A stretch of DNA of 64,000 bases from Krischvirus LF73P4, in the sequence record OZ035795.1; one strand, given 5' to 3'. The notes beneath the pieces are model-generated. The model had not been told where the DNA came from. It saw nothing but the letters and a program-made list of their open reading frames with translations, and searched no databases. The position numbers and the translations under genes were made by a program. Each line of letters starts with the position of its first letter. The stretch's first letter is position 1. This document shows, one piece after another, positions 2,382 through 32,793 of the stretch.

Positions 2382-4382
2382 ATGACTCTATTATCACCGG
2401 GTTTCGAAACGAAAGAAACTACTCTCTCCACTACCATTGTGCAATCTGCGACTGGTCGCGCGGCGCTGGTAGGTAAATTTCAATGGGGTCCAGCTTTCCA
2501 GATTGTTCAAGTAACTAATGAAGTTGAATTAGTTAATAAATTTGGTCAGCCGGATAATAACACCGCAGACTATTTCATGAGCGGGGCTAACTTCCTCCAG
2601 TATGGCAATGACCTGCGTGTTGTTCGTGTACTCAATAAAGAAAAAGCAAAAAACGCAACCGCACTGGCTGGTAACGTCGAGTTTGAAATCACAAACGAAG
2701 GTTCAAACTATGAAGTAGGCGATACCATCAAGATTAAACATAACCGTCAAGATATTGAAACGGCTGGTAAAGTAACTAAAGTTGATGGTGATGGTAAAGT
2801 TAAGGGCGTATTTATCCCAACTGGTAAAATTATCGCTCACGCTAAAGCAATCGGTGTATATCCAGAACTTGATGGCGGTTGGACGGCAGAGTTCACTTCT
2901 TCGTCAGGTAACGGTAGTGCGGCGCTGTCAGTAACTAAAATTGTTACTGATTCCGGTCTTCTGTTAACGGATCTGGAAACTTCCCGCGCCAATATCACAA
3001 ATCAAACTTTCTTGACTAAACTCCAGAAGTATGATATGCCAGCGGTAAGCGCGATCTATGCTGGTGAGATTGGCAACTCGCTGGAAGTGGAAATTCTGGC
3101 ACGTAGTGCGTTTAAGAACACTGCACCGGATCTGACCATGTATCCTTATGGTGGCGAGCGCACCGCAGCACGCAACCTGATTCCATATGCACCGCAGAAT
3201 GATAATCAATATGCATTTATTGTTCGTCGCGATGGTGTTGTGGTAGAATCCTATGTACTGTCTACTCTGAAAGGGGATAAAGACGTATACGGCAATTCTA
3301 TCTACATGGACGACTTCTTTGCTCGTGGTTCTAGCCAGTACATCTATGCAACCGCTCAAGGGTGGGTAGATGGTTTCAGTGGTATTATCTCTCTTGCTGG
3401 TGGTGTTTCTGCTAACGAAGCAACGACTGCTGGTGTTGGTGCTGATCCGTTCATCGGTGCGATGATGCAAGGTTGGGATCTGTTTGCTGAACGAGAATCT
3501 ATTCACGTAAACCTGTTGATCGCTGGTGCATGTGCTGGCGAAGGCGATGCGTTCTCTACCGTACAGAAACATGCTGTTTCCATCGGTGATGAGCGTCAGG
3601 ATTGCTTAGTAATGGTTTCTCCGCCGCGTAGCACTGTTGTTAATATTCCGGTGACTACCGCAATTGATAACCTGATTGCATGGCGCGAAGGTTCAGGAAA
3701 CTATAATGAAAACAACATGAACATTAATACCACTTACGCGGTTATTGATGGTAACTACAAATATCAGTATGACAAATACAACGACGTAAACCGTTGGGTT
3801 CCTTTGGCTGCTGATATTGCTGGTTTATGTGCTCGAACTGATGTGGTATCTCAACCGTGGATGAGTCCGGCAGGTTATAACCGTGGTCAGATCATGAACG
3901 TGGTTAAACTGGCAATTGAGCCTCGCAAGTCGCACCGTGATCGTCTGTATCAGGCCGCAATTAACCCGGTGATCGGTGCTGGTGGTGAAGGGTTTATCCT
4001 GATGGGTGATAAAACCGCTACGACTGTTCCTAGCCCGTTTGACCGCATTAACGTTCGTCGTCTGTTTAACATGCTGAAAAAGAATATCGGCGATTCAAGC
4101 AAATACAAACTGTTTGAAAACAACGATAACTTTACTCGCGCTTCCTTCCGTATGGAGGTTTCGCAATATCTCAGCACGATTCGCTCTCTTGGTGGCATTT
4201 ATGACTTCCGAGTACAATGCGACACCACGAACAACACGCCTGATGTAATTGATCGTAATGAATTTGTTGCTAGCATGTTCATCAAACCGGCAAAATCGAT
4301 CAACTATATCATGCTCAATTTCACTGCTGTTGCAACTGGTGCTGATTTTGACGAAATTATCGGTCCAGCTAACCAGGCATAA
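2382..4382 (+). CDS. 18: tail sheath protein
   Basis: 666 aa; follows terminase as in T4; TATAAATA late promoter upstream. Confidence 0.9.
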   Translation: MTLLSPGFETKETTLSTTIVQSATGRAALVGKFQWGPAFQIVQVTNEVELVNKFGQPDNNTADYFMSGANFLQYGNDLRVVRVLNKEKAKNATALAGNVEFEITNEGSNYEVGDTIKIKHNRQDIETAGKVTKVDGDGKVKGVFIPTGKIIAHAKAIGVYPELDGGWTAEFTSSSGNGSAALSVTKIVTDSGLLLTDLETSRANITNQTFLTKLQKYDMPAVSAIYAGEIGNSLEVEILARSAFKNTAPDLTMYPYGGERTAARNLIPYAPQNDNQYAFIVRRDGVVVESYVLSTLKGDKDVYGNSIYMDDFFARGSSQYIYATAQGWVDGFSGIISLAGGVSANEATTAGVGADPFIGAMMQGWDLFAERESIHVNLLIAGACAGEGDAFSTVQKHAVSIGDERQDCLVMVSPPRSTVVNIPVTTAIDNLIAWREGSGNYNENNMNINTTYAVIDGNYKYQYDKYNDVNRWVPLAADIAGLCARTDVVSQPWMSPAGYNRGQIMNVVKLAIEPRKSHRDRLYQAAINPVIGAGGEGFILMGDKTATTVPSPFDRINVRRLFNMLKKNIGDSSKYKLFENNDNFTRASFRMEVSQYLSTIRSLGGIYDFRVQCDTTNNTPDVIDRNEFVASMFIKPAKSINYIMLNFTAVATGADFDEIIGPANQA

Positions 4383-27834: not shown

Positions 27835-29886
27835 TTACATTTTAAATTTATCTGGCATTGCGTCTACAGATACCAGATCAGCGATAAGCTGACGTAGAGT
27901 TGCCTTATCTGCTTTCTTACGTTCGGTTTTAGCTTCGCTAATGAAGCTGGAGAAAGACAGGTCAGAAGCAGGTTTAACAACACCTTCACGGATGAATGCA
28001 TCACCGTCCGCGATCATCTCGCCAGATTCTTGTAATGCTGCCAGTTCATTTTTGTTCATAATATGTGCCTCAATGTAATAAGTTTCTTGTGAATCCGTCG
28101 ATGCCGTAGCACGAGTTACCGTATCAAAGGATAACACAACACCGCGAGGAAGTAAAATCTCGCATTCTTTGTAAGCAAATGCTTTGTTACCTACTGGCAA
28201 TACAGGGATGTTTTCCGCGCCAGCAATGGAGAAAGCAACATTAGCGCCACCTTCACCACGAGAGCCAGCCATAGAATCAACACCAGCAACGGCACTAGCC
28301 ACGTTTGCATTCCAGCCGCCAAAAATGTTAGGTGCAAGGGAAGTGCTCACATAGTTTTTAAAGTAAAACGCTTTTTGCTTACGTGCAGTTTCCCACATTT
28401 GCGACCGGAAGTCCATACCACGATACAGAATAGTACCCGGATCAAGTTTAACGCCATAGTTGGAGAAGGCATTATCCAGTGCATCGCACATCTTGACCAA
28501 TTCTTCTGGATCTGAGATGCCTTCAAACTCTTCCAGCTTACGGTCGGTTAGGAAGTTGTTCATATTGATGTATGCTGCATCGGCATATTCGCTCAACACA
28601 AAACCTTCCGCGCCTGGCAGATCAAGATCAATATCTGCCATCATTTCACCCATGTTACTAGCAATTGCTTCAAACATACCGGAAGCAACATTACGTAGGG
28701 CATCGGTTTTAATCTGGGTGATATGACTACGCAGCATTTCAGCTTTTACATCTGCTGGCATAGACTGGTCTACTCGATCCATTGCTAGGGCGGTGATCTT
28801 GTTTTCGAATACTTCCTCGCTCATGATTTCTTTTAAGCGTTTGATTGATGCTGCGATAACTTCCGCAGACAACGGATCATATTGATCCTGAACTTTTACC
28901 AGTTCGCTTACTGCGTATTTTGCATCGGCTTCGCTTTCAAAAATAGTACGCATGAAACCATAGCGAGTGATAATATCACTTGTCCAGTCATTCAGAGAAC
29001 GGGCGGTTGAACGTTCTAAGGCTTGACGATCAATCAGAGTATTAAACTGTTTCTTAGGTTCTGCTTCGGTGATATCTTCTTCCGGTTTAAGATTAATTTT
29101 TTCTGGATGATTCACATAGTCGCTGTTATAGGTCGCTTGAGTTTTCAGCATTTCTTCTTTAGTCAAACGAGATTTAGCCGCTACGCGTTGTTCTGCTTCC
29201 GCGTTTCGTTCTTCTTCTGACACAAGACTAGCCGCATACGCCTCATCTTTAGTCAGAGATTCACCAGTAGCCTTAGATACCCAGCGATCACCTAAATCAC
29301 TTTCTACTTTAGTGAACAAGGATTCATCAAGTTTAATCCCTTTAATCTTATCAATCGCCATCCCGCGACGTTTGACAACAACTAAAGCGATCTTTTTGCT
29401 GGTCATTACTTCCTGCTGGAATACTTCAAACTTCGGTGTACGACGCACCAAACGCTCTATAACGCGCTTAACCAGTTCGGTCTTACCTTTCATGCGGGAT
29501 ACGTTAAAACGGAACATAACAGCGTCTAATTGCGCTTTACGGGCTGTTTCCATAACCACATCAAAAGCACTTGCCATAACTGCAATCGGGTTATCTCCTA
29601 GACCATTTTTAAGCTGTACAATACGACCGCTTTTGTTCATTTCGCACAGTACAACATGTGCGGTCTTGTCACCCATACGAATGATTTTAGGTGTTTTGTT
29701 GGTGAAGTTACAAAGACGGACAATCACATCTTTATCGCGTGTCTGTACTGCAAAAAGCTGTTTAGGATTCTGCTTAGGCTTTAAGCACTGTACCGGAGCA
29801 ATACTGCCAAAGTTTTCTTCCTCTTCCGTCAACAGCCATTTCTCGAAAGATTCAATCATTAGATCGTCGATTTCTAAGTTAAACAT
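27835..29886 (-). CDS. alt: Alt ADP-ribosyltransferase
   Basis: 683 aa (T4 Alt 682 aa); LYRGMDF, YVSTS, ECEILLPRG; follows gene 54 as in T4. Confidence 0.85.
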   Translation of the reverse strand: MFNLEIDDLMIESFEKWLLTEEEENFGSIAPVQCLKPKQNPKQLFAVQTRDKDVIVRLCNFTNKTPKIIRMGDKTAHVVLCEMNKSGRIVQLKNGLGDNPIAVMASAFDVVMETARKAQLDAVMFRFNVSRMKGKTELVKRVIERLVRRTPKFEVFQQEVMTSKKIALVVVKRRGMAIDKIKGIKLDESLFTKVESDLGDRWVSKATGESLTKDEAYAASLVSEEERNAEAEQRVAAKSRLTKEEMLKTQATYNSDYVNHPEKINLKPEEDITEAEPKKQFNTLIDRQALERSTARSLNDWTSDIITRYGFMRTIFESEADAKYAVSELVKVQDQYDPLSAEVIAASIKRLKEIMSEEVFENKITALAMDRVDQSMPADVKAEMLRSHITQIKTDALRNVASGMFEAIASNMGEMMADIDLDLPGAEGFVLSEYADAAYINMNNFLTDRKLEEFEGISDPEELVKMCDALDNAFSNYGVKLDPGTILYRGMDFRSQMWETARKQKAFYFKNYVSTSLAPNIFGGWNANVASAVAGVDSMAGSRGEGGANVAFSIAGAENIPVLPVGNKAFAYKECEILLPRGVVLSFDTVTRATASTDSQETYYIEAHIMNKNELAALQESGEMIADGDAFIREGVVKPASDLSFSSFISEAKTERKKADKATLRQLIADLVSVDAMPDKFKM

Positions 29887-30417: not shown

Positions 30418-30486
30418 GTTTGATTCCCCTTTCGTTTCGGTATGTGTGTATTATAGGGGATCACCGATCCCCCTGTCAACAACTTT
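30418..30486 (-). promoter_or_regulatory. PeSL-type early promoter/stem-loop cassette
   Basis: TTGACA, spacer palindrome GGGGGATCGGTGATCCCC, TATAAT. Confidence 0.6.
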
Positions 30487-31005
30487 TTAGTTATTTTTTA
30501 ATTGCTCATCTTGCAATAGGGCAATCACATGCTGGCGATGTTCTTCCGATTGAGGCACACCGAAAAAGTTTGTTTTGTAGAAATACTCTAATCGGTCTTC
30601 TCGTGTGCTCTCTTCCATCATGATCGCGGGTAGTCCGAGATTTCGGAAACGTCGCTTTTCTGCTGGCGTAAAATCACTGTAATACAACATAGAATCATCA
30701 TTACCAGCAATGCTAAACTCATCCTTCATAAAGGAGAATATTGCGTTTAAACGCTGTTTACCGTCCACGATTTCGATCTCATAGCGAGAGCCATCATCAA
30801 TCTTAGCCATTGCGATAGCACCAACCGGAAAATCATTAATCAGGTTTTCGATAAACATACGTTTGTTTTCGGTGTCCCATACCAAAGGACGCTGATAATC
30901 TGGGTTCATGTTGATATAGCCATCTTCTAACCATGCTTCGTAAACAGAGATGACAAAGTTTTTAGTATTGGTATAGTAACGGCGTTTAGGCGTTAAACGG
31001 TTCAT
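30487..31005 (-). CDS. DUF262 / ParB-like nuclease-domain protein
   Basis: DYQRPLVWD and VDGKQRL motifs; start set at ATG after AGGAG, 1 nt from the upstream stop. Confidence 0.6.
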   Translation of the reverse strand: MNRLTPKRRYYTNTKNFVISVYEAWLEDGYINMNPDYQRPLVWDTENKRMFIENLINDFPVGAIAMAKIDDGSRYEIEIVDGKQRLNAIFSFMKDEFSIAGNDDSMLYYSDFTPAEKRRFRNLGLPAIMMEESTREDRLEYFYKTNFFGVPQSEEHRQHVIALLQDEQLKNN

Positions 31006-31006
31006 G

Positions 31007-31336
31007 TTATAGTCTCCTGAATGGATCATCACGTAAATCAATATCTTTTAAGAACTCATCCCATGAATGGCGGATATTGTTCTTAATTCTCCAGATAAGC
31101 GCAGGGATTGAACGCTCTCCCATCTGGAAGTATGGATCATATGATCCGTATGCCCAATATGCTACTACAATTCCACAATCAGCGCAATAGTATTCTATTT
31201 CACTTGCTGGCGACCAAAGTCCATCAATATGATCGGTGATCTTGCTTTCGATGTTATGGCTATGACAATCAGGGCAACGGATGCAATGACCTTGTTTATC
31301 GTAATTTGACGTTAGCGAATACTTAAACAATCTCAT
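31007..31336 (-). CDS. zinc-ribbon protein
   Basis: CIRCPDC..CADC cysteine pairs; overlaps neighbours in an operon. Confidence 0.5.
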   Translation of the reverse strand: MRLFKYSLTSNYDKQGHCIRCPDCHSHNIESKITDHIDGLWSPASEIEYYCADCGIVVAYWAYGSYDPYFQMGERSIPALIWRIKNNIRHSWDEFLKDIDLRDDPFRRL

Positions 31337-32052
31337 TATAGATCCTTATTGGCTTCAAATACTGCCTTTGCGAATCCTCGCGGGGTAAGTGACCTTATAG
31401 TCTTTGTTTTCGTTCCTTTCCCGCCTAGCTTAGAATGCTGTTTACTGTACCCTTTATTAATCTGCAACGGTTTCTTTTCTGGCATTATAAAGCCTTGTCC
31501 GGTCCATAAGCAAGTCTTTTTTGGGTACATATCACGGTCGGCAATATACTCAGGAAAAGTAGGATGTTTATCATCTTCCGGCAAATAACCGCCATATTCC
31601 CACGGATGGAACATATAATCAGGCTTACGCCACATGCTAGAGATAACGCTTACAGGATTCTCTATCATGTAGGGAACTCCTAGCCATTCACCCAAATAAG
31701 CGGTTATTTTAGCTGCCCGTACATCATGAACTTGAATCAATGGTCCTTGTTCTAGTTTCTTTCGTTCAAAGTGCGCAGCGCCACTAACAGCTAAATTGGT
31801 GCACGGTGGGAATGCAAAGATAATATCCGGTTTCCCCCATTCAAGGTCCATTGCTCTTTCCAGCCAATTCAAATCAATCCATGTGTTTACATAGGTAATG
31901 TTTGGATGTTCAAATCGGGTATTATACTTTTTGTATGTGCCGTGGTCGCCATCGTCAGCATTAAAGCAGATCACCTTATGACCCGCTTTAGCCCATTCTA
32001 ACCCCATTATCCCCGATCCGTCAAAGTTGCAGAATATTAATTTTTGTTTCAT
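31336..32052 (-). CDS. DNA C5-cytosine methyltransferase-like protein (short)
   Basis: Motif I-like FDGSG, catalytic-like DIIFAFPPC (compare DIL.AGFPCQ), ENP at the motif VI spacing; only 238 aa with no obvious target-recognition domain. Confidence 0.5.
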   Translation of the reverse strand: MKQKLIFCNFDGSGIMGLEWAKAGHKVICFNADDGDHGTYKKYNTRFEHPNITYVNTWIDLNWLERAMDLEWGKPDIIFAFPPCTNLAVSGAAHFERKKLEQGPLIQVHDVRAAKITAYLGEWLGVPYMIENPVSVISSMWRKPDYMFHPWEYGGYLPEDDKHPTFPEYIADRDMYPKKTCLWTGQGFIMPEKKPLQINKGYSKQHSKLGGKGTKTKTIRSLTPRGFAKAVFEANKDL

Positions 32053-32294
32053 ATACGCCCCTTTAATCCAACACAGATTTTAGAAGGTTCTTTGCCGTGC
32101 CACATTAAGTAAAGTCCGTTAATGCGGCCTTGTTTTGTGTATGATTCTTTTCTGATCTTCTTATAGTGTCGTGTTTCCTCTACCGATTGTTTAGAATACC
32201 AATCATAAAGGAAGAGGAACAAAGGCCAACCATTAGCAACCTTAATGCAGTTATTCAAAAATTCCTTATTTCGTTTAATTAATTTTCTTTTCAC
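32049..32294 (-). CDS. hypothetical basic protein
   Basis: 81 aa; overlaps neighbouring genes. Confidence 0.45.
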   Translation of the reverse strand: MKRKLIKRNKEFLNNCIKVANGWPLFLFLYDWYSKQSVEETRHYKKIRKESYTKQGRINGLYLMWHGKEPSKICVGLKGRI

Positions 32295-32542
32295 GCTGCC
32301 CCCATTGGTTTGATAGTAACAGAATCTAAAAGACCTTTGTTAGCCAGTTCGCGGCAAGTTTTCAGATCCGCAACTTCCCAGCCAGCCGCAATCAGGTTAT
32401 CAATGAGGCTGTTAGCAACTTCTTCGCTCATGAAAGAGCACTGTTTGCCGATGGTGTAGCGTACACGCTGTAATTTCAGTTTACGGAAGCCTTTAACGTT
32501 CAGGTCTTTAGCGATTTTCTTTGCGGTTTCGATGTTAGCCAT
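32291..32542 (-). CDS. hypothetical protein, first gene of operon
   Basis: 83 aa; PeSL cassette immediately upstream. Confidence 0.5.
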   Translation of the reverse strand: MANIETAKKIAKDLNVKGFRKLKLQRVRYTIGKQCSFMSEEVANSLIDNLIAAGWEVADLKTCRELANKGLLDSVTIKPMGAA

Positions 32543-32625
32543 TGTTTGATTCTCCTAAGTGGTATCTCGTCTTGATGGTTGTATTGTAGGGGAGTTATCC
32601 TCCCCTGTCAACACTTTTTATAAAA
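32543..32625 (-). promoter_or_regulatory. PeSL-type early promoter/stem-loop cassette
   Basis: TTGACA, spacer palindrome GGGGAGGATAACTCCCC, TACAAT; heads the DUF262/methyltransferase-like operon. Confidence 0.6.
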
Positions 32626-32793
32626 TTATTTGTTAATTTCTGGTGCGTTGCTCGGATAGTAACCTTCTTTAACACCCAGATATTTTGCAACCATCCCTAC
32701 AATCTTCTGTGCTACTACAATGTCAAATTTCAGATAATCTTCGCCGTGGGTTTCAATGATATATGCTTCACATGCTGCTTTAGTCTCGAACAT
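32626..32793 (-). CDS. small hypothetical protein (paralog of 35896..36063)
   Basis: 55 aa; 49/55 identical to the second copy. Confidence 0.5.
   Translation of the reverse strand: MFETKAACEAYIIETHGEDYLKFDIVVAQKIVGMVAKYLGVKEGYYPSNAPEINK

Follow-up and report, generated by a model that had tools for sequence, protein, structure and literature searches.

In the 64,000-nt stretch of Krischvirus LF73P4 DNA analysed here (OZ035795.1; hereafter the window), five small minus-strand genes between positions 30487 and 32625 encode, among others, a short putative DNA (cytosine-5)-methyltransferase, a zinc-ribbon protein and a DUF262 protein. Our analysis suggests that they form one early transcription unit in a hyperplastic part of an RB49/Phi1-like Krischvirus genome bounded by promoter-stem-loop (PeSL) elements, and that the five coupled genes are accessory genes acting independently of each other. 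The methyltransferase would be an active orphan enzyme of a compact phage Dcm family, and the DUF262 protein a factor in its own right. We assign this joint reading a probability of about 0.62. Gene structure, folds, family membership and distribution were obtained in this analysis, the production of 5-methylcytosine (5mC) by a homologue is taken from the literature, and target, role and gene independence are what we infer.

The short methylase belongs to a large family of compact phage proteins

The 238-residue protein (hereafter the methylase) matches the family phrog_757, annotated as 'DNA methyltransferase', with an E-value of 8e-90 over residues 1-237. A fold search found the catalytic-domain fold of C5-cytosine methyltransferases, with DNA enzymes as the best structural matches and with Dnmt2 and the C5-carboxymethyltransferase CmoX among the structural neighbours. 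We base the assignment on these fold matches and on phrog_757, because the score against the Pfam family PF00145 stays below threshold (see below). No match was obtained in NCBIfam or in a sequence search against PDB chains, and a profile of the methylase family gave only a marginal match among PDB chains, to M.HaeIII (E = 0.54).

The motifs from which the initial annotation had recognised a C5-methyltransferase, FDGSG, PPC and ENP, are all present. In an alignment of 30 homologues, motif I (FDGSG, residues 10-14) is nearly invariant at G12, S13 and G14, and motif IV (P82-P83-C84, with the catalytic Cys84) and motif VI (E131-N132-P133) are invariant; the first two align to motif I and to the GGPPCQ of M.HaeIII, respectively. 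Residues WR (141-142), the lysine pair within YPKKT (K177/K178) and RSLTPR (220-225) are likewise invariant or nearly so. At the position of the target-recognition domain (TRD; motifs VIII-IX), the protein has a short segment (residues ~143-213) that is conserved as strongly as the catalytic motifs.

Homologues of the methylase are abundant. We found 7,311 in a set of 5.8 billion proteins, nearly all of 200-260 residues and falling into 1,140 clusters at 50% identity, and a tblastn search returned matches in 1,579 of 50,697 phage records. Carriers include Drexlerviridae, Dhillonvirus and Vequintavirinae-like phages as well as phages of Campylobacter, Vibrio, Roseobacter and even Arthrobacter. 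Dcm or C-5 cytosine methylase is already the label given in many phage records, public Krischvirus genomes included. The short length without a classical TRD, which the initial annotation had pointed out, is across these homologues the norm of a large phage family and no anomaly. Compared to the classical C5 DNA methyltransferases (PF00145; M.HhaI, M.HaeIII and E. coli Dcm) and the catalytic domain of DNMT3A/B, however, the methylase falls below the Pfam threshold, carries a ~70-residue insert conserved throughout its family instead of a large variable TRD, and shows no canonical GN.VP motif X that would be evident by eye.

A probable family member methylates DNA and triggers retron Ec86

Functional information comes from phage K42 (KarlJaspers/Bas06-like, ~51.7 kb), in which all mutations of mutants escaping retron Ec86 (Eco1) lie in a 711-bp 'dcm' gene (bioRxiv 10.1101/2023.08.16.553469). 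Its product was modelled on DNMT3A; the wild-type protein increased 5mC in the multicopy single-stranded DNA (msDNA) of the retron as determined by liquid chromatography-mass spectrometry, methylates msDNA when supplied alone from a plasmid, and is inactive as a C82A/E128A/K175A/K176A mutant, while defence by Ec86 needed a CCTGG site in the msDNA stem (bioRxiv 10.1101/2023.08.16.553469). In Warwickvirus tonijn, the 711-bp methyltransferase gene specifies C82, E128, K175 and K176, precisely the residues mutated in inactive K42 Dcm, and its 236-residue product shares 55% identity with the window methylase over the full length, where the equivalent residues are C84, E131, K177 and K178. Judging from gene length, genus and residue numbering rather than from the K42 sequence itself, we take the tonijn protein to be the orthologue of K42 Dcm and place the window methylase in the same family. 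The KarlJaspers-type Warwickvirus Dcm (phrog_757) and the window methylase would thus have family, length, catalytic residues with the lysine pair and a DNMT3-like fold in common. They differ in that the former is encoded by a siphovirus of the Drexlerviridae and the latter by a T4-type myovirus, in a five-gene operon with a zinc-ribbon and a DUF262 gene.

By analogy, the Krischvirus enzyme would produce 5mC in DNA. The expected mechanism is an attack of Cys84 on C6 of a flipped-out cytosine, assisted by Glu131, and transfer of the methyl group of S-adenosylmethionine to C5. With the conserved insert (~143-213) replacing a variable TRD, all family members probably recognise the same target, for which CCWGG, as proposed for K42 Dcm, is the likeliest candidate. 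A likely benefit would be that replicating phage DNA is shielded from CCWGG-directed restriction in hosts lacking Dcm; the known cost of such methylases, the triggering of retron Ec86, might apply as well. In terms of annotation, the short methylase of RB49-like phages receives a name, as it belongs to a compact phage Dcm family with one experimentally active member and a known consequence with respect to Ec86. Krischvirus phages, of which some serve in phage collections and in therapy work, would accordingly be expected to have low-level 5mC, probably at CCWGG, and might be protected against EcoRII-type enzymes and sensitive to Ec86.

Several observations weigh against this reading. For the Krischvirus enzyme itself, DNA methylation is predicted from homology and structure. 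Of the two profile matches that the initial annotation had anticipated, the one to PF03235 was obtained for the DUF262 protein (72.9 bits, with the cut-off at 33.2; E = 5e-20), but the methylase reaches only 13.2 bits against PF00145 (gathering cut-off 22; E = 0.058) and covers positions 7-80 of the 324 in the profile. Furthermore, the CCWGG specificity of K42 Dcm is an assumption modelled on host Dcm, and its only support is the mutation of the msDNA site (bioRxiv 10.1101/2023.08.16.553469). RB49 is grown routinely on E. coli B, and retron Ec86 is native to at least one B derivative, BL21(DE3); should the Krischvirus enzyme act as K42 Dcm does, the Ec86 response on such hosts would have to be dampened in some way. 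The window also contains 25 CCWGG sites where 53-66 are expected, an approximately 2-fold depletion that self-protection alone would not predict. CCSGG is equally depleted (14 observed vs 36-40 expected), so that the whole CCNGG class is avoided and the depletion of CCWGG therefore says little about the methylase target beyond the fact that sites are few. Finally, the methylase, zinc-ribbon and DUF262 genes each occur in 56 Krischvirus records at 90% identity or more, in the same order and translationally coupled, and ParB-fold partners of phage DNA-modifying enzymes have precedents, so that a link between these genes cannot be dismissed on principle (PMC12704722, PMC13229309).

Among the other sequence features of the window, GGCC reaches only 0.30 of its first-order expectation, whereas GATC is 1.5-fold over-represented relative to a first-order model.

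Methylase and DUF262 genes are probably neighbours

The conserved gene order with translational coupling and the precedents for ParB-fold partners would fit a true module. In it, the DUF262 ParB-fold protein, perhaps together with the zinc ribbon, would serve to load, activate or target the TRD-poor methylase on double-stranded DNA (dsDNA). ParB-CTPase folds are often fused to DNA methyltransferases and such fusions are enriched in phages (PMC12704722), the phage thymine dioxygenase 5mYOX176 requires a ParB homologue to act on dsDNA (PMC13229309), and the DUF262 family retains its conserved motifs. In these systems as in the window, a ParB-superfamily NTP-binding fold is encoded beside a post-replicative DNA-modifying enzyme in a phage. 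However, the known partners are PF02195-type ParB proteins with a dimerisation domain or covalent fusions, the latter with N6/N4 methyltransferases, whereas the window encodes a PF03235 domain in a gene separate from that of a C5 enzyme. Moreover, K42 Dcm methylates msDNA without such a partner.

The distribution of the genes argues against a module, too. We searched 80 viral methylase loci with 6-kb flanks on each side, using all five operon proteins and a hidden Markov model of the DUF262 family, and examined selected records in addition. DUF262, zinc-ribbon or small proteins of the operon were found only in the two Krischvirus contigs among these loci, and none of the 78 non-Krischvirus loci carried a DUF262 or zinc-ribbon gene within 6 kb of the methylase. 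In turn, other, unrelated genes surround the DUF262 homologues of RB16, the Slopekvirus phiEap-3, ST64B and two metagenomic phages, and no methylase is among them. A 109-residue gene product preceding the DUF262 protein in RB16 and phiEap-3 was considered as a zinc-ribbon homologue, which would have pointed to a conserved module of two genes, and rejected, being an unrelated protein without the cysteine motif. As Krischvirus genomes are ~97% identical, the 56 records with conserved gene order do not constitute independent evidence. The combination of the three genes into one module, as put forward in the initial annotation, thus finds no counterpart outside Krischvirus in the sampled loci, and we consider such a module unlikely.

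Since the methylase, zinc-ribbon and DUF262 genes are spread separately in other phages, we read their pairing as a genus-specific adjacency within a hyperplastic region, and the genes as probably neighbours rather than parts of one new system. In the simplest reading, PeSL-mediated shuffling placed independent accessory genes behind one promoter. The gene content of the unit also varies within the genus. In the Krischvirus metagenomic contig L008 (5774-6004 and 6001-6717), the 81-residue protein gene is absent and therefore dispensable; the methylase there starts at the GTG that normally starts the 81-residue gene, and the 83-residue gene has been recombined such that its N-terminal part is replaced. 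Phage kaaroe carries an additional 59-residue open reading frame (ORF) between the zinc-ribbon and DUF262 genes (1505-1684 of the compared stretch).

Cytosine modification differs between phages with the same operon

What is known about the DNA of close relatives is consistent with sparse methylation. RB49 DNA is cut by HpaII and NheI (PMC4041780). Phage TB34, whose operon is 98.3% identical to that of the window, has no modified nucleoside detectable by high-performance liquid chromatography/mass spectrometry and is immune to BrxU (PMC13390438). By rough estimate, 5mC at so few CCWGG sites would correspond to a fraction of a percent of cytosines, and given the small number of sites, undetected 5mC in TB34 is compatible with a site-specific methylase.

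In contrast to TB34, the 99.96% identical phage SAP carries 5-hydroxymethylcytosine (5hmC) and glucosyl-5hmC (PMC13390438). We compared the two phages over 9 kb around the operon and found the five genes to be identical; the operon can therefore not by itself explain the difference in modification. The only structural difference in this region is a 79-bp tandem duplication at 3420-3498 of SAP (OZ034687.1). It concerns the PeSL cassette that directly follows the DUF262 gene (equivalent to just downstream of window position 30487); five single-base indels lie farther upstream in the compared region. We considered the extra ~80 bp of SAP as a change to the operon genes or as the source of its cytosine modification and rejected both, because only a promoter cassette is duplicated and the five genes are the same.

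These data also bear on whether the methylase-fold protein serves another role, such as the methylation of tRNA or other RNA (as Dnmt2), the transfer of another group (as CmoX) or a contribution to hypermodification of the kind seen in SAP. The absence of detectable modification in TB34, the two structural neighbours named above, the conservation of the TRD-equivalent insert, which is unusual for a sequence-specific DNA methylase, and the SAP modification, made by a route not yet identified in the source paper, are in line with this idea. On the other hand, the homologous K42 Dcm yields 5mC on DNA, DNA enzymes are the best structural matches, the operon is the same in modified SAP and unmodified TB34 except for the duplicated downstream promoter, and the sparse CCWGG sites suffice to account for 5mC escaping detection. 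Another role thus appears very improbable to us. The suggestion of the initial annotation that the region is concerned with DNA modification therefore holds for the 238-residue protein, judging from its fold, the catalytic Cys and Glu and a family with a 5mC-producing member, but it finds no support for the operon as a modification or anti-restriction module.

The DUF262 protein is a minimal, nuclease-less member of its superfamily

The DUF262 protein contains both motifs reported in the initial annotation, DYQRPLVWD and VDGKQRL, and was correctly described there as lacking the HNH/DUF1524 half. YQR (37-39) and DGKQR (81-85) are invariant in its family, as is a further motif, N.F.GVPQSEEH (N..GVPQSEEH, 146-156). 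The protein ends at residue 172 without a nuclease or DNA-binding extension, and Pfam and defence-profile searches detected no DUF1524/HNH domain in any of the five operon products. A sequence search against PDB chains gave nothing useful, while a fold search found a ParB-N fold, with 133-134 residues superposing on BrxU and SspE. The structural check that the initial annotation had suggested was thus positive for both proteins, with a C5-methyltransferase catalytic fold for the one and a ParB-N fold for the other. The conserved motifs are those that form the NTP site in GmrSD-type enzymes and ParB-fold proteins, and nucleotide binding is predicted here as well.

Stand-alone relatives are widespread. 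A profile search retrieved 2,868 proteins of 160-300 residues, and tblastn gave matches in 324 phage records, including the temperate Salmonella phage ST64B. In other T4-type genera, homologues with ~36% identity are found in RB16, in Slopekvirus (e.g. phiEap-3) and in phages of Cronobacter, Citrobacter and Klebsiella. In ST64B, the homologue Sb33 (2995-3510 of the compared stretch) lies in the early region near the endodeoxyribonuclease gene Sb30, Sb31, Sb32 and the integrase, a context unlike that in T4-type phages. Given the many phages that encode a homologue but not the methylase, we regard the DUF262 protein as acting in its own right, most likely as a nucleotide-dependent DNA-binding switch or an anti-defence factor.

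The domain is related to known defence proteins. The type IV and PT-sensing enzymes GmrSD, BrxU and SspE share with it an N-terminal DUF262 ParB-fold domain with QR and DGxQR motifs, but comprise ~560-600 residues with a DUF1524/HNH half, whereas the window protein is phage-encoded, has 172 residues and lacks this half or any other effector. Its best matches among the PADLOC defence profiles are Menshen NsnA (E = 1.3e-20, positions 47-187 of 385) and PD-T4-2_A (E = 5.6e-12). In the Menshen system, the sensor subunit NsnA combines ParB-DUF262 with a ParBDB domain and works with the ABC ATPase NsnB and the effector NsnC (PMC12065111). Unlike NsnA, the window protein has no C-terminal ParBDB DNA-binding domain, and the operon contains no NsnB or NsnC genes.

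The initial annotation had proposed that the protein is a decoy of DUF262-containing type IV enzymes. In a broader form, the nuclease-less domain would inhibit DUF262-based host defences (GmrSD/BrxU, SspE, Menshen NsnA, PD-T4-2) and constitute, with the methylase, a two-pronged anti-restriction cassette. BrxU-type enzymes act as oligomers, and the window protein is a bare DUF262 domain. The defence-profile matches, the early expression predicted from the promoter and the early-left position of the ST64B homologue would also agree with a decoy. However, the invariant motifs of the phage family suggest an activity of its own, the closest defence profile is Menshen NsnA and not GmrSD, and the carriers (RB49-like phages and temperate ST64B) have ordinary cytosine DNA, which would offer no target to GmrSD; the immunity of TB34 to BrxU is due to its lack of modification. 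In addition, the DUF262 domains of different defence systems share almost nothing beyond a DGQQR motif (PMC12373910), which makes a generic decoy hard to picture. The decoy proposal is thus unsupported, and we judge it rather improbable.

A tie between the DUF262 protein, with or without the zinc ribbon, and Dcm within Krischvirus would be a long shot: the protein might be a nucleotide-dependent loader or activator on dsDNA, or a counter-measure to the liabilities of methylation or to DUF262-based sensing (retron Ec86, Menshen, GmrSD/BrxU-type). If it were true, the phage DUF262 proteins without a nuclease, a family of ~2,900 members, would represent an unrecognised class of anti-defence or DNA-handling factors. 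Members of this stand-alone family are found in T4-type as well as temperate phages, and their fold is one by which bacteria detect phage DNA.

The zinc ribbon shows no sign of a nuclease

The zinc ribbon noted in the initial annotation is borne out by four invariant cysteines (C21, C24, C51 and C54). Apart from these, only R20, E46, Y63, G64 and P68 are invariant in the family alignment. Homologues were detected in 292 records, including Nonagvirus JenK1, Gorganvirus and Felixounavirus, and occur there without a methylase or DUF262 partner; those outside Krischvirus were drawn from GenBank phage records, and a scan of viral contigs with the zinc-ribbon protein returned two Krischvirus contigs only.

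With its gene immediately preceding that of the DUF262 protein in the same operon, this Cys-rich protein could conceivably form with the latter a split GmrS/GmrD-like, modification-dependent nuclease directed against competing hypermodified phages; split GmrS/GmrD systems exist (PMC4619093). We rejected the zinc ribbon as a degenerate HNH nuclease: the four cysteines are conserved together with R20, E46 and YG..P only, the family has no conserved His or Asn, and searches gave no HNH/DUF1524 profile or PDB match. Zinc-ribbon homologues without DUF262 and DUF262 homologues without a zinc ribbon also occur in other phages. We hold a split nuclease to be extremely unlikely.

Architecture of the locus and its PeSL cassettes

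Over 3 kb, the operon region shares 97-98.5% identity with upwards of 50 sequenced Krischvirus phages, among them RB49, Phi1, GEC-3S, TB34 and KMB43. These relatives and the neighbouring Alt gene assign the locus to a T4-type phage of the RB49 group, in the stretch of small early genes upstream of alt. The alt-like gene (27835-29886, minus strand) sits directly downstream of this block and encodes a full-length, 683-residue Alt-like RNA-polymerase ADP-ribosyltransferase (phrog_802, E = 7e-180; PF03496).

The initial annotation had placed five minus-strand genes behind one promoter cassette. We located all five ORFs and a near-consensus promoter upstream of them (Table 1). The junctions between the ORFs are, in order, GTGA, ATGA, TAATG and TAAcATG, with overlaps of 4, 4 and 1 nt and a distance of 1 nt for the last pair. 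This geometry suggests translational coupling. For the DUF262 gene, the most likely start is the ATG at 31005, which is used in the TB34 and GEC-3S annotations, rather than the upstream TTG at 31041 from the ORF list, which is not used there.

Table 1 Features of the early transcription unit in the window.
Feature	Position	Strand	Family or sequence	Remarks
Early sigma-70-type promoter, PeSL type	32583..32611	-	TTGACA GGGGAGGATAACTCCCC TACAAT	palindrome in 17-nt spacer
83-residue ORF	32291..32542	-	phrog_14908	first gene of the unit, variable
81-residue basic protein	32049..32294	-	phrog_7065	GTG start overlaps the preceding stop
238-residue compact DNA (cytosine-5)-methyltransferase, predicted	31336..32052	-	phrog_757	phage Dcm family
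109-residue C4 zinc-ribbon protein	31007..31336	-	phrog_2993	
172-residue stand-alone minimal DUF262 (ParB/Srx-fold) protein	30487..31005	-	phrog_1583	
Next PeSL-type promoter	30450..30479	-	TTGACA-18-TATAAT	12/12 match; just past the DUF262 stop

NCBIfam assigned no family to four of the five operon proteins. The sole and weak match of the 83-residue product in the PADLOC profile search concerns its residues 12-75, which align to the C-terminal part (722-785 of 938) of the UG35 defence reverse-transcriptase profile RT_UG35 (E = 2.6e-5).

PeSL elements have been described for the hyperplastic regions of RB49 and phi1 (PMC4122927). They combine a near-perfect TTGACA-N17-TAnAAT promoter with a palindrome of G-run, loop and C-run and are repeated between accessory genes. 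The cassette of the operon is the described element, without a difference: a palindrome GGGGAG...CTCCCC fills its spacer, and behind it come a ribosome-binding site, TAGGAG, and the first gene start. The next promoter of this type marks the downstream boundary of the transcription unit, and the GEC-3S record carries equivalent promoter annotations.

Six promoters in the window satisfy a strict PeSL pattern (TTGAC[AG], a G-run/C-run palindrome in the spacer, TAnAAT), all on the minus strand, at 52387, 39758, 37288, 32855, 32611 and 30479. The operon-driving cassette at 32611 has the same sequence as the one at 52387, which might therefore serve as a substrate for PeSL-mediated recombination. 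A 55-residue gene of phrog_8009 (32626-32793) immediately precedes the operon in the window. This gene is present in two copies of ~91% identity in the Krischvirus contig L007 (2002-2166 and 5260-5424), which indicates local duplication of PeSL-flanked minigenes.

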